A stretch of DNA of 64,000 nucleotides from a virus (lineage: Duplodnaviria > Caudoviricetes). The translations under genes were made by a program, and so were the position numbers. The stretch lies in IMG/VR virus record IMGVR_UViG_3300028888_000063, positions 1 to 64,000 of that record, one strand, 5' to 3'. Shown here one piece after another: positions 54,298 through 62,871 of the stretch; the first letter of the stretch is position 1; each line of letters begins with the position of its first letter. A model generated the notes under the pieces. It saw nothing but the letters and a program-made list of their open reading frames with translations, made no database searches and had not been told where the DNA came from.

Positions 54298-55308
54298 ATG
54301 GCAAAAATAAAAGAAGTCTCTTCTTATAATGGTACGTCATGGGATACTCCAGTACCAATAGGAGCAAATGACGCAAATATTGATATTACGTCAAGTACAA
54401 CAAACCCTACTGATACCACTTCAACTTCTGCAGGGTTAGTTGATAGTAATGTTACTGTTGCGGCGGGAGACACTGCCGCTTCCGCATGGACAAAATTTAA
54501 TAGATTTAGAAAAAGAGTGCAAAACGCATTCGGTAATTTTGCAGGAGTAACTTTAAGAACTGCATATAATACATCAAATACTAGTACTTCTGTTTATACA
54601 ACAGGTGTTATTAATAATTACATGAGTAATGTAATTGGGTATACAGGGACGACAGAGCCAAGCGCCGGAACCGTGGCCGCTCAATTAAGTTCATTAAATA
54701 GTAAAGATGCATCTCATGATACTAGTATATCTAATTTGCAAACTGGATTAGATAATGTATTTGTTTGTAAAACAGTATATAATGCAGATGATGCACCTAC
54801 TGGGGTTAGTGCGATGCCTGATGGAGCTACTAATAATCCTTTTAGTTTTTGGTGTACTATAATAACAACTTATGGGCAGGCAACTTATAAGCAACAAATT
54901 GCTATTCCTTGGGCACAAGGTGAGCAGTTTATTCTTGCTCGCAGGGTTATGGATGCTGGGACTTGGGGCGCATGGAATATAAATTATTCTACTCCTGCCT
55001 ACTACCCACTTACCCAAAATAATACTAAAATTACTGTAATTGGTGGAGGCACTTCACTTCTATTTAATAGAATGTTTTTTATCCGTGTATTATTTGAAGT
55101 AAAAAGCTCTGTTGCTAAGGATGAATCGTTATTTACATTGCCTATGCCATGTCGCCTTAATGTAGGAACTATAACTTTAATAAAACAAAATGGAGCAGGC
55201 TATGCTACTGTGGCTATACGCAATAATACAGATTTATTTGTTAATTATGGTAATGGAATTCCTTCCACAGGATGGTGGGTTTTAGACGGAATATGCTATA
55301 CTTTTTAA
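54298..55308 (+). CDS. receptor-binding side fibre: constant N-terminus (aa 1-132) plus currently fused cassette A
   Basis: Strong RBS; crossover site at 54693; pyocin-knob-like segment (QQIAIP...RR...WGAW) and beta-sandwich tip. Confidence 0.8.
   Translation: MAKIKEVSSYNGTSWDTPVPIGANDANIDITSSTTNPTDTTSTSAGLVDSNVTVAAGDTAASAWTKFNRFRKRVQNAFGNFAGVTLRTAYNTSNTSTSVYTTGVINNYMSNVIGYTGTTEPSAGTVAAQLSSLNSKDASHDTSISNLQTGLDNVFVCKTVYNADDAPTGVSAMPDGATNNPFSFWCTIITTYGQATYKQQIAIPWAQGEQFILARRVMDAGTWGAWNINYSTPAYYPLTQNNTKITVIGGGTSLLFNRMFFIRVLFEVKSSVAKDESLFTLPMPCRLNVGTITLIKQNGAGYATVAIRNNTDLFVNYGNGIPSTGWWVLDGICYTF
54693..54704 (+). repeat. shufflon crossover site 1 ATTAAATAGTAA
   Basis: In frame (TTA AAT AGT = LNS) within expressed fibre gene. 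Confidence 0.85.
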
Positions 55309-55787
55309 GGAAGCCGTCTCATAGCTATTAATATTAAATATGCATTTGTGTTATTTGTAAAAATTTTATCATCTATTTTTAAGACAGGTGCGTTAGCATA
55401 AACAGATCCATATAAATAAAAATGAGAAATAGTAGAGGGATTTGTCCAAAGTATAACAGGAATAGTAGTAGATTGATCATTATTATAAGCACTCACAATT
55501 ACAACCGATGGAGCATAAGAGAAAGTGTAAGTGCTATGTGGGTCAGCTATTGCTGTTCCACCAAAAAATAAATTTCCAAGACAAAATTGACCTGTTTTAT
55601 CTACTAGAGGATTTAACATAGTAGTACCATCTGCTGTTGTACTGGCTATATGTAATGCATAATTATTTGTTCCTCCACCTCTTCTTAATTCTGCTCTAGG
55701 TCCAGCTGTAGTACTAGTATTAGAACCTAAAGTCCATATTAACACCGGATTTTGACTAGCTGCTTTTGTATTTAAATTACTATTTAA
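55305..55787 (-). CDS. silent fibre C-terminal cassette B (160 aa, no own start)
   Basis: Frame opens right after in-frame TAA at site 2: LNSNLNTKAASQNPVLIWTLG... Confidence 0.8.
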   Translation of the reverse strand, partial: LNSNLNTKAASQNPVLIWTLGSNTSTTAGPRAELRRGGGTNNYALHIASTTADGTTMLNPLVDKTGQFCLGNLFFGGTAIADPHSTYTFSYAPSVVIVSAYNNDQSTTIPVILWTNPSTISHFYLYGSVYANAPVLKIDDKIFTNNTNAYLILIAMRRLP

Positions 55788-55788
55788 T
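55777..55788 (-). repeat. shufflon crossover site 2
   Basis: TTACTATTTAAT on + strand; flanked by TACTAT/ATAGTA inverted arms (55778-83, 55795-800). Confidence 0.85.
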
Positions 55789-55823
55789 TAACTGATAGTA
55801 TGGACTAGATTCGCTAATTTTCA

Positions 55824-55852
55824 TTGATTTTTTATAAAAAATATGTTACAAT
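55824..55852 (+). promoter_or_regulatory. promoter of recombinase
   Basis: TTGATT-17-TACAAT with extended -10 TG. Confidence 0.6.
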
Positions 55853-55889
55853 ATAAATACAAAAAATGAAACAAAATTTTTTATAAAGG

Positions 55890-56903
55890 TTGGTGAAAAG
55901 AGTGAGCGACAATAGGGAAATTAGAGATGCAGTATTGCGGACGTTGGTAAGTGAAGGATTAAGCGGAGATCAGCTAAAGAATGTAGATAAAGCGTTGTTA
56001 AAAGCTTTAGCTGGATATCAGATTACACCTGCGGAGACCCATTTAGTGGAGCGGGAGTCATGTGTGCCAGAGATTATGGCGTATTTGGTGCGGAAGAAAG
56101 CTAAGGGGTTAGCTGAAACTACACTGCAGCAGTACAGCTTGACATTGAAGTATTTTGCTATATATGTTCCTAAAAAAATTAGTGATATTACTGAATGGGA
56201 TGTATTATACTTTTTAGACCAATATAAAAAAGATAGGAATATTAGTAAATGCAGACAGGATACTTTAAGGATTATTTTGAATGGATTCTTTAGATATCAA
56301 GCTGACTGCGGAAATATTAAAATTAATCCAATGGCTACAATAGAGCCAATTAAATATAGAAAAAATGAGCGGGAGCCGCTAACAGAGATAGAGCTAGAAA
56401 AATTGCGGTATGCTTGTTCTAAATTAAAAGAGCGGGCGTTACTAGAATTTTTCTTCTCTACCGGCTGCCGCGTATCTGAAGTAGTTAATGTTGATATCGA
56501 TGATATTGACTTTAATAATAAAATTTTAAAAGTGACTGGTAAAGGAGATAAGGATAGGATAGTGTGCTTAAATGCGAGTGCAGTGCTTGCATTGCAGAGA
56601 TATCTAGAATCTCGAGTAGATGATAATCCAGCATTATTTGTATCTGATAATCGCCCACACCAGAGACTTAAAAAAGAAGCCTTAGAAAAAATTATTAGAG
56701 TTCTAGGCGAAAAGGCGGAGATGGGCCGCCGCATATATCCCCATCTAATTCGTCATACTACTGCTACTTATCTTTTGAAACATAAGATGCCTCTTGAAGA
56801 ATTGCAGCAGTATCTTGGCCATGAAAATATAAATACTACTATGATTTATGCAAAAACTGACCGAGAAAGTATGATTAATTCATTTAAAAAATGTATGATT
56901 TAA
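55890..56903 (+). CDS. tyrosine recombinase (probable shufflon invertase)
   Basis: Catalytic R (TGCRVSE), K (GKGDK), HxxR (PHLIRH), H (LGHE), Y (TTMIYA); N-terminal SAM-like domain. Confidence 0.9.
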   Translation: MVKRVSDNREIRDAVLRTLVSEGLSGDQLKNVDKALLKALAGYQITPAETHLVERESCVPEIMAYLVRKKAKGLAETTLQQYSLTLKYFAIYVPKKISDITEWDVLYFLDQYKKDRNISKCRQDTLRIILNGFFRYQADCGNIKINPMATIEPIKYRKNEREPLTEIELEKLRYACSKLKERALLEFFFSTGCRVSEVVNVDIDDIDFNNKILKVTGKGDKDRIVCLNASAVLALQRYLESRVDDNPALFVSDNRPHQRLKKEALEKIIRVLGEKAEMGRRIYPHLIRHTTATYLLKHKMPLEELQQYLGHENINTTMIYAKTDRESMINSFKKCMI

Positions 56904-56916
56904 AAGGAGAAAGTAT

Positions 56917-57351
56917 ATGATTATTCGTTTTGGATCCAATGAATATGATTTAGTACCTGGGTCTGCTGCGCAAACTTATGATGGTAATCTTCATCTTGAT
57001 GTAGTAGCAGACGGTGTTGATTTTGAAGAATTAGAAGAAGTTTTATCTAATAGTGATAACCTTGATCCTATTAAAATTTTAGATAATGATGAAGTAGTTC
57101 AAGTTATTACTGGTTATGGTAAACTTTATGGCATTAGCAAGGAATATAATGTTCTTTATTGGATTGAGAGAATTGAACCAGAACCTGTTGATCCTGAAGA
57201 TCCAGATGCAGAACCTGGTGAACCTCAAGACATTGAACATCGTGTTGATGTATTTAGAGTGGTTCTTCGCAAGCCTGATCTTTCTGATCAAGTTAATTTG
57301 AATACTGCTAATATTGAATTCCTCGCTATTATGAATGATATCGAGTTATAA
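56917..57351 (+). CDS. tail-fibre assembly-associated protein
   Basis: 144 aa, acidic, precedes XkdX-like gene. Confidence 0.55.
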   Translation: MIIRFGSNEYDLVPGSAAQTYDGNLHLDVVADGVDFEELEEVLSNSDNLDPIKILDNDEVVQVITGYGKLYGISKEYNVLYWIERIEPEPVDPEDPDAEPGEPQDIEHRVDVFRVVLRKPDLSDQVNLNTANIEFLAIMNDIEL

Positions 57352-57371
57352 TTACAGGAGGATAGAATATA

Positions 57372-57512
57372 ATGCATAGTAAGAATTATGCTAAGATTAA
57401 AAAGTATTATGATGAAGGACTTTGGTCTATTGCTAAGGTTAGAGCTGTAGTTGGAAAACCTCTTGGAATTACTGCTACAGAATTTTTTGAGATCACTGGT
57501 CAGGAATATTAA
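57372..57512 (+). CDS. XkdX-family small protein (46 aa, not in ORF track)
   Basis: MHSKNYAKIKKYYDEGLWS...ITATEFFEITGQEY; GGAGG RBS. Confidence 0.8.
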   Translation: MHSKNYAKIKKYYDEGLWSIAKVRAVVGKPLGITATEFFEITGQEY

Positions 57513-57595
57513 ATTTCCTTCAGTTAAAAATCTATATTCTATGAGAGAAGAAAAATAGCACTCATAGAATTTAGTTTTTATAATTTTATATAGAT

Positions 57596-57629
57596 TGCCG
57601 CTTCTCTTAATTGAGAAGCGGCTTTTTTG
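57596..57629 (+). terminator. rho-independent terminator
   Basis: GCCGCTTCTC-loop-GAGAAGCGGC plus T-run. Confidence 0.8.
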
Positions 57630-57649
57630 TTTTATAGGAGAAGGATAAT

Positions 57650-58027
57650 ATGTATCAGAATGATTTTTATGCGCGGGCGCAGGTTCCGTCAAACAATATA
57701 ATCTGGGTACAAGGAATTGAAGGAGCTAAGGCCCAACAAATAAAGCCTGGAGTGACTTTATTATTATTAGATAGTGAAAATGATCAATTTTATATAAAGG
57801 CATGTGATCAATATGGCATTTGTTTGCCAATAAAAACTTTTAAATTTGAAGAAGTTGTTGCAGCTCCGGCTGTGGCTCAAGCACCTGCCGCCGCGCAGTA
57901 TGTAACAAGAGAAGAATTAACAGAAATCTTAAAGGAGTTTAAATTACAAAATGAACAGCCTATTCAATCAACTACAACCAAATACACCACCATTAAACAA
58001 CAATCTGGCTCAGATAGTAAAGAGTAG
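57650..58027 (+). CDS. hypothetical protein (cargo cluster gene 1)
   Basis: IIWVQGIEGAKA...LLDSENDQFYIK...YVTREE. Confidence 0.7.
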   Translation: MYQNDFYARAQVPSNNIIWVQGIEGAKAQQIKPGVTLLLLDSENDQFYIKACDQYGICLPIKTFKFEEVVAAPAVAQAPAAAQYVTREELTEILKEFKLQNEQPIQSTTTKYTTIKQQSGSDSKE

Positions 58028-58193
58028 TTCTGACCCAGGAATGTTATTTAAAACAATGGCTCAAAATAGTCCACAGGTTCAATCTATTATGCAGATGATT
58101 CAGGCTGCAAATATGACTCCCAAGGATTATTTTTATAAAACTGCTCAAGAGAGAGGAATAGACCCTAATCAAATATTAGGGATGTTTAGATAA
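57951..58193 (+). CDS. small Gln/Met-rich protein (cargo gene 2)
   Basis: 80 aa, AGGAG RBS, AQERGIDP motif. Confidence 0.65.
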   Translation: MNSLFNQLQPNTPPLNNNLAQIVKSSSDPGMLFKTMAQNSPQVQSIMQMIQAANMTPKDYFYKTAQERGIDPNQILGMFR

Positions 58194-58249
58194 TTTGTTT
58201 AAAACTGCTTTAGCAGTTTAATATATATTAAGGAGAATAATAAAACAAT

Positions 58250-58954
58250 ATGGAAAATAATGGAGCACTTAGTGCAAGTGATGTTGCATTATTAAATCGT
58301 AATAACGGTATGTCTTGGGGCGATTCCTCATTTATGTGGATTTTTGCTCTTTTGATCTTAGCCAACGGAGGTTTTGGTGGCTGGGGTAATAACAATTTTG
58401 CTAATGCTATTGGTTATGAGAATTTAGCTACTTCTAATGAAGTACAACGTGGTTTTGATAATCAAAATGCTATGGCAAATCAGCGTGAAATCCTTGCGGC
58501 AGTTAACTCTGGTACTGCTCAAAGTGTTGCTGCTACTAACCAGACTTTCCATGATACTCTCATGGCTAATCAGAATCTCTATAATGAGACTTCTAGAGAC
58601 CTTGCAGCACTCGCAGTTGGTCAAGCAGATCTTCGTGCGGCTCAGGACGCATGTTGCTGCTCAACTAAGCAATTAATCCTTGAGACTGGCGCCGGTCTGC
58701 AAGCATCTGCCGCACAAAATCGTTATGAAGCAGCTATGAATACTGCGGCAATTAATGCTAATACTACTGCACAAGTTCAAAAAGTTCTTGATGTAATTTC
58801 TAATAATCGCATTGATGAATTACAAAATAAAGTTAACCAATTAGAGTTAATGAATGCTACTGCAAATGTGGTTCGTTATCCTAACGCTTCTACATATTAT
58901 GCTGGGAACAACCCATTTTGCGGTGGTGGATGCGGCTGCGGTATGGTAGCCTAA
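58250..58954 (+). CDS. membrane-anchored coiled-coil protein with CCC and C-terminal CGGGCGC motifs (cargo gene 3)
   Basis: TM segment, GGFGGWG, ACCCST, Cys/Gly tail. Confidence 0.75.
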   Translation: MENNGALSASDVALLNRNNGMSWGDSSFMWIFALLILANGGFGGWGNNNFANAIGYENLATSNEVQRGFDNQNAMANQREILAAVNSGTAQSVAATNQTFHDTLMANQNLYNETSRDLAALAVGQADLRAAQDACCCSTKQLILETGAGLQASAAQNRYEAAMNTAAINANTTAQVQKVLDVISNNRIDELQNKVNQLELMNATANVVRYPNASTYYAGNNPFCGGGCGCGMVA

Positions 58955-58987
58955 ACTGAGCGTATTTAGTACGTCTAACTGAAAGTA

Positions 58988-59025
58988 AGGGTGTGCTTAA
59001 ATGCGGCACACCCTCTTTATTTTTT
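58988..59025 (+). terminator. rho-independent terminator
   Basis: AGGGTGTGC-loop-GCACACCCT plus T-rich tail. Confidence 0.65.
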
Positions 59026-59048
59026 GAGAACAAAAAGAGGAGAAGAAT

Positions 59049-59456
59049 ATGTTACAAGTCTATACATTAGCACAAACACTCGTAGATCAACAGCCAGTGT
59101 CTTTTACTAATAGAGTTTTAATAAAAGGATGTACTGCTTCTTTAGGTGCGCCCGCCACTATAGATCTCAATAAAGCCGGAGTTTATGTTGTCTCTTGTAA
59201 TGCAACTATAACAGGCGGTGCGGCCGCAGGAGATGGCTCTTTACAACTCTATAAAAACGGTGTTGCTCAACCTTTTGCAAAAGCAGAGGCAACATTAGCT
59301 ACAGATGATTTAGTTTCTATTGGATTTGAGACTTTAATCCAAGTTCAAGAAAATAATACTCGGTGTTACATCACAAGTCCTACTAGCTTACAAGTAATTT
59401 ATGAAGGCGTGGATGCAACAGGAGATGTTAATTTGGTTGTGACAAAACTCATATGA
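59049..59456 (+). CDS. BclA C-terminal/C1q-like beta-sandwich protein (cargo gene 4)
   Basis: VSF...IDLNKAGVYVVSCNATI...LQLYKNG pattern. Confidence 0.55.
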   Translation: MLQVYTLAQTLVDQQPVSFTNRVLIKGCTASLGAPATIDLNKAGVYVVSCNATITGGAAAGDGSLQLYKNGVAQPFAKAEATLATDDLVSIGFETLIQVQENNTRCYITSPTSLQVIYEGVDATGDVNLVVTKLI

Positions 59457-60019
59457 CGATAGAAGAAGTATTTAAACAGATAGGTACTCATATGATTGAA
59501 GGGTTAATGATGCACTCTCAAATGTCTGAGTATTATTTGTTTTTGGGATTAGAAGGATACGCTGAATGCCATCAATATCATTATTTTGAAGAAAGTTGGA
59601 GTTTTCAAGATTTAATTTTATATTATATTAAAGAATTTAATAAGTTACTTCCAATAAGTCAAGCCAAAGATCCAGGTGTGATTTCGCAAAACTGGTATAA
59701 ATATGCAAGAAATGATGTAGATGCGGGGACCAGAAAAACTGCTATCAAAACTGGAATGGAAAAATGGATTGATTGGGAAAAAGAAACTAAAATGCTATAT
59801 GAAAATATGTATAAAGAATTACTTAATGCTGGGGAAGTGGCGGCAGCTCATAAAGTAAAAGAATTAGTATTAGATGTAGATGAGGAGCTAAGACAAGCTG
59901 AACAGTATTATTTAGATAAAAAAATTACAGATTATGATATGGCAGTAATTCTTGAAGAACAAAAACCTAAAAAAGATAAATATGAAATAGATAAACGCAG
60001 TTTATTCTTTCATAAATAA
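59453..60019 (+). CDS. ferritin-like four-helix protein (cargo gene 5)
   Basis: E..H, HxxHYxEE, WE, DVDEEL ligand pattern. Confidence 0.6.
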   Translation: MTIEEVFKQIGTHMIEGLMMHSQMSEYYLFLGLEGYAECHQYHYFEESWSFQDLILYYIKEFNKLLPISQAKDPGVISQNWYKYARNDVDAGTRKTAIKTGMEKWIDWEKETKMLYENMYKELLNAGEVAAAHKVKELVLDVDEELRQAEQYYLDKKITDYDMAVILEEQKPKKDKYEIDKRSLFFHK

Positions 60020-60023
60020 AAAT

Positions 60024-60058
60024 AAGCCTCTGGGCCAATTCCCAGAGGCTTTTTCTTT
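60024..60058. terminator. bidirectional terminator
   Basis: AAGCCTCTGGG-loop-CCCAGAGGCTT between convergent genes. Confidence 0.8.
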
Positions 60059-60559
60059 TTACCAATCAAATTCTGCGGCGGCTGTGCCATGTTCAACTAT
60101 ATATGACCAGCCTATTAACACTGCATCAGCTAGATCATCATTTTTTGTATTTAGATTAAATAATTCATTAGCTTTAGCTACATCGAGCGGTTTTAGCTGC
60201 GCCCGCTTAATTCCTGGTCCTGTTTTAATTCCAACTTGCTTACGCCAATGATTAGCGCTACATAGCTGCATCTCTTTTGAGTAATGATTTAGAACTATTG
60301 CTATTGCTCCATGTGCAAAAGTTAATTTTCTATATACATCTATATTATTTTTTACGAATGCAGGTTCTGGTTCTTCTGCATATATAATATCTGGATTATA
60401 TTCTAACATTAATTCATTTACTTTTTCTGCAATTTTTTCTATGCGAGTAATTGCGTTCCCTGTTGGAGCTATAATTCCAGATGATATTAATTCTTTTTCT
60501 TTAAATATTGCATATCCTGTTGAAGTCGTAGATATGTCTAATGCTAATAAAGTTGACAT
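60059..60559 (-). CDS. ruvC: RuvC-like Holliday junction resolvase
   Basis: LALDISTTSTGYA, IYAEEP, NDDLADA catalytic motifs. Confidence 0.85.
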   Translation of the reverse strand: MSTLLALDISTTSTGYAIFKEKELISSGIIAPTGNAITRIEKIAEKVNELMLEYNPDIIYAEEPEPAFVKNNIDVYRKLTFAHGAIAIVLNHYSKEMQLCSANHWRKQVGIKTGPGIKRAQLKPLDVAKANELFNLNTKNDDLADAVLIGWSYIVEHGTAAAEFDW

Positions 60560-60656
60560 GATATTCCTTCTTTATAATTTTATTTAATGAACTTTATTAG
60601 TAAATAAATTTTTTACTAAATAGTAATTTAATTAAACATTTTTCAATTATATTTAT

Positions 60657-60884
60657 TTAATTTTTAGAATCGTCTGCTGCTTTTTGACCATCAAGAGGGC
60701 CGCCATAATAAAACCCAAATAATAATTGTCTTAAACAATCTGGGCAATATCCTGAGTCATGCTTCCCAGATGATGTATAGGTGCAGCCGCAGAGTTGACA
60801 AATAAGTGTGGGTGCAGGTCCTTCCAATCGGATATCACTAGAATTTTGATTGGTGTTTGCGTCTGCCGCATTAGAAAGTACCAT
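60657..60884 (-). CDS. small zinc-ribbon protein
   Basis: CQLCG...CPDC; AAAGGA RBS; promoter TTGACA(60937-42)-17-TATCCT. Confidence 0.65.
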   Translation of the reverse strand: MVLSNAADANTNQNSSDIRLEGPAPTLICQLCGCTYTSSGKHDSGYCPDCLRQLLFGFYYGGPLDGQKAADDSKN

Positions 60885-60976
60885 AATTATTTCCTTTCTC
60901 TTGAACTAAGTCAAGGATAACATAAAATTTTTATTTTGTCAAATATTTATTCATAACAGATATTGCGCGGGCGTTT

Positions 60977-60988
60977 ATTAAATAGTAA
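60977..60988 (+). repeat. shufflon crossover site 3 ATTAAATAGTAA
   Basis: In frame at the beginning of the SGNH ORF. Confidence 0.85.
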
Positions 60989-61967
60989 TTTAACATATCA
61001 TTATAGGAATGTTTTAAAAGGGAAAAAATTGCTTGTTATTGGGGATAGTTGGTGTGGTTCTTGGAACGGCACGGAAAACCTTACTCCGTGGGCAACTAGA
61101 CTTGCGACTATGACAGGTGCAATATGTGAAAATCACGCTTTCCCAGGTAGTGGTTTTGTCGCTACAGGTAATTTAAACAAAAATTATGCTACTGCAATTT
61201 CTGAGCTTGACGGAGATTTTGATGCAATAATTGTTCAAGGCGGCATAAATGATATTGTAGCTAATCCGACCGCTGAAACTATTAAAACAGCAGTTGCAAA
61301 TTTTGCAACGAATTGTAGAACAAAATTTCCTAATAGAGATATTTATTTTATACCAACTACACAATGTGTACCGTTAAACATAACACAGATTCAAGTAATA
61401 TTTAATATAATGCTTGAAGCACGAAAACACTATTTAATAACATGCAAGGAGACTGCATCAATTTCTATTAGCTCACCAAATTATGCAGGAGATTTAACCC
61501 ACTTAAGTGATGCCGGCTACGATGAACTTGCAAGATGCGTTGCACAATTTTTAAGCGAAGGTACATCAAAAGTTACAAAAGAAACTATTCATTACCCCAA
61601 TAGCCCTGCTTATATGTTTTATAATATGACTCCGCCAGCAGGTATTACATGGACTGGCATGTATATTCGAGTGGAAGGCGACATTGTTAATTTCTATGGT
61701 ACAGCAAACTTTGCGAATGATACAACTGGAGATTTTGTTAAAATAATGGACGGGTTACCGCCTGCTATCGCGCCATATACAGCATCAAATTACGCTTTTG
61801 ATACATTCCCCGCAGGTTCAGATCCTGCTTTCGCTTATAGAGTTGCATTTATGGTAGGCCAAGAAATGTTTGTACAAACAATGTGGACAAACATGAAAAA
61901 TCATACTTTGTTTGTAATAGCATCATATACTACAAACGAAAATACTGAATTGTTTACAACTACATAA
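60978..61967 (+). CDS. silent fibre cassette C: SGNH/GDSL hydrolase plus beta-sandwich tip (329 aa)
   Basis: GDSW (block I), G (block II), GGIND (block III), DLTH (block V); no RBS before TTG 60963; begins LNSNL. Confidence 0.8.
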   Translation, partial: LNSNLTYHYRNVLKGKKLLVIGDSWCGSWNGTENLTPWATRLATMTGAICENHAFPGSGFVATGNLNKNYATAISELDGDFDAIIVQGGINDIVANPTAETIKTAVANFATNCRTKFPNRDIYFIPTTQCVPLNITQIQVIFNIMLEARKHYLITCKETASISISSPNYAGDLTHLSDAGYDELARCVAQFLSEGTSKVTKETIHYPNSPAYMFYNMTPPAGITWTGMYIRVEGDIVNFYGTANFANDTTGDFVKIMDGLPPAIAPYTASNYAFDTFPAGSDPAFAYRVAFMVGQEMFVQTMWTNMKNHTLFVIASYTTNENTELFTTT

Positions 61968-62067
61968 AGCTTAAAATCATAGTATGAATATTATGTTATT
62001 ATTAAATATAGATAAGACAGATATTTTTGCTATTATATAGCTATAACTAATTCAATTCGTTAATATT

Positions 62068-62802
62068 TTATACCGATGCTAAATATACACATGATCCATA
62101 CCAATGGCCAGCAACTTGACCACAATACCATGGCTGTAAAGTACCTCCGTCTAAATTAACACGAGGTTGTAAACTTGTATCTGTTCGGCCACCGGCAGCA
62201 GATACAAATATAGTGCCCCCAGTGACTGGCGAAGGACAAGCGTTGTTTGCAGAAAGCTTAGCTACACCATCGCTAGAATAAGTTGAGTTTAAAGTAACGT
62301 CATAAGTTAAATGCACTATTCTCACTCCACTAGCACCAACGCTAATACTACGATAAGATATTCCACCGCTACAATATGTAGAATTAACTGCAACACCAGT
62401 TGAAGCAGTCAATCCATTTTGTATCCAGAGTTGGGCTTTTTCTGGCACTGAGTCCCAAACTCTTAAACACCAATATGCTCGTTCAAATCGAGGAGAATAA
62501 ATATTTAACCACCCATACGTAGCAGAACCCATATATGTGCAATAAAAATCTCCCACAGCTCTACCAGTGAAACTACCATCTGAACAAAAATTTTCAGTAA
62601 ATCCATCCCATATATGAAAATTTATAACACAATTACTGCCATTCCAACCAGCATTTATAGCTGCATCTCTCATTTGCGCCCAAGAATCTACCCATGAACT
62701 TAACTCAATATATGTACTTGCCCATTTACTATTTTGTAAAAATGAAACATCTGTCTGTAAAGTTGCAATATTAGAATTTTGAGTTGCATCATTACTATTT
62801 AA
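62068..62802 (-). CDS. silent fibre cassette D (244 aa, no own start)
   Basis: Frame extends 43 codons upstream of track ATG 62673 to site 4: LNSNDATQNSNIATLQTD..., similar to LNSKDASHDTSISNLQTG of cassette A; in-frame TAA just before. Confidence 0.85.
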   Translation of the reverse strand, partial: LNSNDATQNSNIATLQTDVSFLQNSKWASTYIELSSWVDSWAQMRDAAINAGWNGSNCVINFHIWDGFTENFCSDGSFTGRAVGDFYCTYMGSATYGWLNIYSPRFERAYWCLRVWDSVPEKAQLWIQNGLTASTGVAVNSTYCSGGISYRSISVGASGVRIVHLTYDVTLNSTYSSDGVAKLSANNACPSPVTGGTIFVSAAGGRTDTSLQPRVNLDGGTLQPWYCGQVAGHWYGSCVYLASV

Positions 62803-62803
62803 T
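62792..62803 (-). repeat. shufflon crossover site 4
   Basis: TTACTATTTAAT on + strand. Confidence 0.85.
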
Positions 62804-62871
62804 TAATTAATTGAAATTGACAAGAATGAAAAATTATGTTATAATTTATTTAAATAATGGAGGGATTTTAA

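Follow-up and report, generated by a model that had tools for sequence, protein, structure and literature searches.

A Rin-type tail-fibre shufflon with a remote tip store, proposed for a 134-kb phage genome

The 64,000-nt stretch analysed here (the window) is the first 64 kb of IMG/VR record IMGVR_UViG_3300028888_000063, a complete 133,655-bp phage genome (Caudoviricetes) with direct terminal repeats. At the end of its tail module, a fibre gene is accompanied by alternative tips without starts of their own, a tyrosine recombinase and several copies of a short repeat (Table 1). We consider it highly probable that this locus is a tail-fibre shufflon of the Rin type with a remote tip store, run by the adjacent recombinase and exchanging near and far tips by nested inversions. 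A preliminary description, made from the sequence of the window, had already proposed a split multi-cassette fibre shufflon with an adjacent tyrosine recombinase, and this proposal was borne out by the fusion of different tips at the site in relatives and by a near/far exchange in a sister phage. The system is real and very probably active; the enzyme as the agent, its activity in this genome and the order of the steps are what we infer from these comparisons. With phAss-1, whose host is predicted among the Clostridia (PMC10607447), the 134-kb phage shares 51% identity in the major capsid protein, and it probably has a Clostridia host as well.

Repeated sites at the fibre neck and start-less tips

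An exact 12-mer occurs four times in the whole genome, each time within this locus (sites 1–4) and at the positions first described, compared to 0.18–0.29 copies genome-wide and 0.01–0.02 copies per 8.5 kb expected from Markov models. All four copies encode Leu-Asn-Ser in frame and head the open frame of a cassette, site 1 lying at codon 133 of the 336-aa fibre gene, and an in-frame TAA directly precedes the site of cassettes B and D; these features, together with the lengths of B, C and D, agreed with the preliminary description. Its list of four 12-bp sites stood but missed a fifth, at 60615, which is followed by a 14-codon frame, coincides with a breakpoint of homology and heads a cassette in the related loci L004 and L005 (loci and contigs of relatives carry L numbers, database proteins P numbers); the Logan contig L011 terminates exactly at this site, which may hint indirectly at several orientations within one population. 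Judged from sequence, the functional core that is exchanged is the inner 10 bp of the repeat and not the 12 bp reported before. Conservation around the sites covers ~7 bp on the backbone side and the 10-bp core, with little on the cassette side. The core is uniform within each locus, third codon positions included, and varies between clades, its middle dinucleotide (AG, GA or AA) changing in concert, as expected if partner sites must match. A scan of viral contigs with a 17-bp consensus returned isolated matches that are put down to chance and lack homology to the window.

The sites are built of short inverted arms flanking an asymmetric middle. At empty slots (L003:6387–6410, L006:16923–16945 and 60617–60640 of the window), one site is joined straight to the opposite flank, resembling the product of recombination between sites 3 and 4 in spite of their opposite orientation. 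The first far pair in two clades (L012:14815–15425, L005:15619–16753) is flanked by longer inverted repeats of 46–52 bp, and the cores of this pair in L012 are one base off the other cores. Sigma70-like promoters directed away from the cassettes occupy the backbone flank of sites 2 (Table 1), 3 (60914–60942, minus strand) and 4 (62817–62845, plus strand). The recombinase is driven by the promoter at site 2, so that binding at this site could autoregulate the enzyme.

A clear ribosome-binding site (RBS) precedes the fibre gene, and the earlier statement that no other frame has one was upheld: none was detected at the internal starts of B and D or at the upstream TTG of C, and one internal TTG in C has a weak RBS at best. 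B, C and D as independent genes translated from their own starts, named in the preliminary description as evidence against switching, were ruled out by the missing RBS and by the occurrence of homologous tips only as C-termini. An alternative genetic code, as in phAss-1, was also ruled out, because the long genes are open in translation table 11. Predicted fusions of the constant region to B, C and D (292, 461 and 376 aa, respectively) are free of stops.

Five of the six database proteins that share the constant region continue into unrelated tips from residue 133, and the sixth (P0001) carries an allele of A. Tips of the SGNH family are joined to the constant region in P0006 and P0022, and the neighbours of the fibre in Atlas are XkdV/YomR-type fibres. 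The predicted fold of the constant region was too poor for a structure search (pLDDT 50), and a search for this region in viral and genome contigs gave no match. No Pfam or PHROG match was obtained for A and no family match for B, whereas C matched PF13472 (E 9e-9) and a tail fibre PHROG. The C-terminal 115 residues of D were modelled with high confidence and resemble gp15 of Listeria phage PSA (Z 10.4, rmsd 3.2, 107 aligned residues), the receptor-binding protein (RBP) of lactococcal phage TP901-1 (Z 8.8) and the p2 head, although D had no match in the PDB by sequence. Homologues of D occur as C-termini of other tail proteins, and D is predicted to be a receptor-binding head on the basis of this model. 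Family matches among 39 cassettes from relatives were to tail, fibre and baseplate proteins. Searches for a longer homologue of B and for donor loci of A and of the D family found none.

The recombinase retains all catalytic residues (R190, K214, H281, R284, H307 and Y316), matches PF00589 (E 2e-38) in addition to a SAM-like domain, scores best against Xer-type models, and is the sole tyrosine recombinase of the genome; the serine resolvase family PF00239 had no match in the complete genome. The enzyme is intact and 98–99% identical across strains. Recombinases of gut phages that are 41–42% identical to it sit inside multi-site shufflons with up to 14 sites, which also read Ser-Asn-Leu and the pairs of which are flipped between near-identical contigs. 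On the gut phage contigs in question (L023–L029, 18–165 kb, 5–14 sites), the recombinase is placed between the near slot and the array; no match was found among GenBank phages.

Exchange of near and far tips across the core

Exchange across the genes that separate the near and far pairs was found in a sister clade with a recombinase 74% identical to that of the window. Assemblies show the sister phage in two states, with a single recombinase sequence and a backbone 99.98–100% identical. In L012, one tip is expressed and three pairs are kept on the far side of the core; the tip expressed in L016 is one from this far store of L012. We predicted that the displaced tip would lie reversed in the far slot before L182 was examined, and it was found there: between L012 and L182, a 382-bp near and a 573-bp far segment were reciprocally swapped, both reversed, around an unmoved 5,582-bp core. 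An outer plus an inner inversion of L012 performed in silico gave a sequence that differs from L182 at 4 of 19,806 bp. Of the two bases next to the 10-bp core, the 5′ one stayed with the backbone and the 3′ one moved with the cassette, indicating that the crossover lies within the 10-bp core; the active expression site of the sister phage has a C at −1, like site 5 of the window. The swapped state was present in four contigs from ENA and Logan. An assembly artefact was ruled out because the 10-bp repeat is shorter than the assembly k-mers and both states appear in several assemblies. Thus, far cassettes reach the fibre in the sister phage.

In the mechanism that we propose, the Xer-like recombinase would recombine inverted copies of the 10-bp core in frame at the fibre neck, joining the constant 132 aa to one of the four tips. 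Switching from A to B would require one local inversion, and the far pair would be reached via two nested inversions, an outer one between sites 1 and 4 (1×4) and an inner one between sites 2 and 3 or 2 and 5, after which the near and far segments would have traded places, each reversed, with the 5.2-kb core back in its original orientation. With four sites, 16 states are reachable, of which D with a restored core takes two inversions and C takes three. The preliminary description had a single 1×4 inversion expressing D; far tips do reach the fibre in the sister phage, but this inversion by itself leaves the core reversed, a state that was never assembled. The 144-aa gene and XkdX share the orientation of the fibre gene in all loci examined, which suggests that the core-inverted intermediate would be short-lived, rare or selected against. 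We would guess that an inverted core costs the phage the read-through of these two genes from the late tail transcript. The expected outcome, judging from the folds, would be virions with different receptor-binding or surface-deacetylating tips.

Several observations weigh against this mechanism. No core-inverted genome was found among about a dozen distinct loci, the exchange across the core is a single event in a clade with a diverged recombinase, and none of 43 homologues is a fusion of the constant region to B, C or D. In its favour, loss of the recombinase goes together with mutation or loss of the site, as seen in L003 and L187.

The core that separates the near and far pairs spans 5.2 kb, recombinase included. 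The pairs are split, as the preliminary description had it, but the cargo between them was wrongly called unrelated, because it includes XkdX and is conserved in relatives. The five-gene operon has the same order in L003–L007, L012 and L018. This operon, which encodes BclA_C-like and Cys-rich proteins between two terminators, is kept in relatives with and without the recombinase and is missing from L001. In two contigs, XkdX is followed at an identical point by foreign DNA, a higher-GC gene in one (L010:11660–12009) and an IS1595 transposase in the other (L017:1716–2765), reflecting either insertion or chimeric assembly.

Table 1. Features of the fibre locus in the window
Feature	Position	Strand	Basis or remark
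Constant N-terminal part (132 aa) of the sole expressed fibre/receptor-binding gene	54298–54693	+	RBS; 92–100% identity in six database proteins
Site 1, expression site	54693–54704 (10-bp core 54695–54704)	+	Homology to L003–L007 ends at 54704
Cassette A, tip now expressed, 204 aa	54694–55308	+	Open reading frame; 86%-identical allele in P0001
Cassette B, silent tip, 160 aa	55305–55787	−	Head-to-head with A; stop codons of A and B overlap
Site 2	55777–55788 (core 55777–55786)	−	Exact 12-mer
Sigma70-like promoter of the recombinase, directed away from cassettes	55824–55852	+	9/12 plus TG; consensus match only
Xer-like tyrosine recombinase, 333 aa	55902–56903	+	Catalytic residues, Pfam, Xer models
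144-aa gene and XkdX (46 aa), usual companions of fibre genes	56917–57512	+	Terminator 57597–57622
Five-gene operon in core, one protein BclA_C-like	57650–60019	+	Terminator 60024–60051; conserved in relatives
RuvC-like Holliday junction resolvase in core	60059–60559	−	Family match
Site 5, one mismatch, inner 10 bp intact	60615–60626 (core 60617–60626)	+	Resembles empty slot
75-aa Cys-containing gene with own promoter, between direct repeats (sites 5 and 3)	60657–60884	−	Absent in L004
Site 3	60977–60988 (core 60979–60988)	+	Exact 12-mer
Cassette C, silent tip, 329 aa; SGNH/GDSL esterase domain and C-terminal domain	60978–61967	+	PF13472, PHROG
Cassette D, silent tip, 244 aa; predicted receptor-binding head fold in C-terminal 115 aa	62068–62802	−	Structure match
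Site 4	62792–62803 (core 62792–62801)	−	Exact 12-mer

Cassette turnover among relatives and alternative explanations

The preliminary description had suggested a look at the cassette order in related phages. Same-species loci are ~96% identical to the window, and their homology to it breaks off at each of the five sites (54704, ~55770, 60626, 60990 and 62791–62804). The samples of several close relatives bear the label STEW19, a set of cattle rumen metagenomes. L007 combines the exact layout of the window with four other tips. In L004, there is one near tip and the far pair sits directly at site 5, the segment between the direct sites 5 and 3 being absent, which suggests that deletion between direct sites can occur where it is harmless. 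The far pair has been lost in L003, L006, L013 and L018; in L003 and L006, the far slot is empty with one site left, and L003 lacks spare tips altogether, its site 2 being mutated and its recombinase mostly deleted. In L187, where both recombinase and site are missing, the constant region continues into a fixed tip of 330 aa (L187:10001–11389), which suggests that an existing fibre gene either gained the switch or lost it.

Single-tip slots occur in L012 (9514–9885) and L004 (10398–10823), where inversion would yield a stub of 4–31 aa, possibly an off state of the fibre. Close to the start of a far cassette of L005 (15653–15810), a ~55-bp tandem duplication disrupts the frame that runs from the site; it may be an assembly error. 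Loci of a third, related clade (L001:3980–10987, L185:1782–10996) contain a tandem of two constant fibre genes, both provided with a spare tip and an internal site, and two far pairs flanking RuvC, with eight sites in total and the recombinase at the far end. The RuvC block between divergent sites is inverted in L185 compared to L001.

The strains share their sites and not their cassettes: among 17 same-species cassettes from seven assemblies, no pair exceeded ~35% identity. The number of tips per slot is 0, 1 or 2, and that of far pairs per array 0, 1 or 3. Such mutually dissimilar cassettes, empty, single and double slots, and tandem arrays of up to three far pairs led us to consider, tentatively and as an analogy-based extension, that the locus might be a capture-and-exchange platform, in which the recombinase would trade site-bounded segments between slots and between genomes, filling and emptying the slots, while the species draws on an open pool of receptor-binding tips, comparable to what dif modules provide for plasmids. 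Enzyme-driven capture is a lead for further work, since variable segments can pass from strain to strain by homologous recombination in the flanks as well.

It is improbable, if somewhat less so than the other alternatives, that the same sites and enzyme exchange near and far segments between two genome copies (replicating or co-infecting phages) through two intermolecular crossovers, like dif modules through cointegrates, with intramolecular inversion across the core being rare. The lack of core-inverted assemblies, the absence of a common cassette among strains ~96% identical, the variable filling of slots and arrays, and the missing 5–3 segment of L004 would all fit such exchange. However, L012 and L182 are exactly reciprocal, without gain or loss, as two inversions on the same molecule give directly, and the inter-pair RuvC block has been inverted between L001 and L185. 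The differences between strains are also explicable by homologous recombination in the flanks, as suggested by the rising mismatch density in L013. We give still less credence to a locus in which only the near pair A/B switches, C and D being stranded relics of a system that may be largely inactive: C and D have intact open frames and perfect sites, the recombinase is conserved across strains, and far cassettes of the sister phage do reach the fibre, even though fused C or D was not found among homologues and the far pair has been lost in many relatives. Finally, an ordinary integrase or dimer resolvase, with the repeats marking a conserved Leu-Asn-Ser neck and the tips shuffled by chance recombination, would agree with a sole Xer-like tyrosine recombinase but can practically be dismissed, because the DNA core is identical per locus down to third codon positions and different between clades, non-coding DNA precedes 3 of the 4 sites, the site is missing from relatives that do not have the enzyme, and the exchange is precise.

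Relation to known systems and implications

Rin shufflons were described in Bifidobacterium prophages with 11-bp sites (PMC6109161) and in clade 1 prophages of Eggerthella lenta with 8-bp sites (PMC8778435). The combination of a tyrosine enzyme with very short asymmetric sites, regarded as unusual in the preliminary description, is therefore already known and defines the Rin type; a 10-bp example is the BV01-like shufflon (PMC13596623). Our proposed nested-inversion shufflon was assigned to this type by comparison with its published features. Like Rin systems, it has a phage-encoded XerD-like tyrosine recombinase, a constant RBP N-terminus with an in-frame internal site, and dissimilar start-less C-termini in both orientations behind short asymmetric repeats that are rare elsewhere in the genome; the tips of Rin systems resemble the TP901-1 RBP head, as D does here. 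Variable segments acting as receptor-binding domains are predicted from the fold of D and the tail fibre PHROG match of C, and rearrangement at the sites between close genomes was found in the sister phage, not for the window's own cassettes. Rin cassettes are lined up without interruption between the constant gene and rin; here, by contrast, a 5.2-kb conserved block that includes the recombinase separates half of the tips from the fibre gene, and these require two nested inversions. In addition, the tips are larger (160–329 aa) and one is an enzyme, and the genome is 134 kb long with no separate integrase.

The BV01-like tail-fibre shufflon of Phocaeicola vulgatus phages, reported in a preprint with activity shown in reads, shares the 10-bp directional core, non-homologous cassettes and flanking recombinase, but it is a compact 1.7-kb window of three cassettes without intervening genes (PMC13596623). 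Inversion also switches phage tail-fibre C-termini in the Mu Gin, P1 Cin and p15B Min systems; these use serine invertases and longer sites, unlike the window, whose genome encodes no serine resolvase. The R64/IncI Rci shufflon (pilV) resembles the locus in its tyrosine recombinase, asymmetric sites conserved on one side only and head-to-head pairs of C-terminal cassettes, and differs in serving a plasmid pilus adhesin with 19-bp repeats and contiguous segments. Acinetobacter dif modules (PMC13141974) likewise have variable modules bounded by inversely oriented Xer-type sites within a conserved backbone, undergo inversions and deletions between sites with matching spacers, and differ in content among close relatives. 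They depend on host XerC/XerD and 28-bp two-arm sites and move whole genes on plasmids, whereas an element-encoded single enzyme and in-frame gene fragments are involved here, so we regard them as an analogy for cassette turnover and not as a class to which the locus belongs. An integron was ruled out, because the recombinase scored 81.7 bits against the integron integrase model TIGR02249 (cut-off 265) and the cassettes are head-to-head gene fragments rather than whole genes with attC. The split layout had no match in the literature searched, which held few subscription journals. It is this layout that lacks a published match among those found, and it is of note here together with the base-exact natural double inversion and the cassette turnover.

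Taken together, our analysis indicates that tip switching in phages can operate across kilobases of conserved genes and provides a base-exact natural case of two-step exchange, in which the crossover is narrowed down to 10 bp. A question raised in the Rin work thereby becomes testable, namely what makes an armless tyrosine recombinase invert DNA and not delete it, with lethal effect, where needed genes lie between direct repeats, here sites 1 and 3. Annotation is affected too, since gene callers overlook or truncate the silent tips. Tip repertoires appear to turn over far faster than the backbone, and this bears on the host range of phages of anaerobes.

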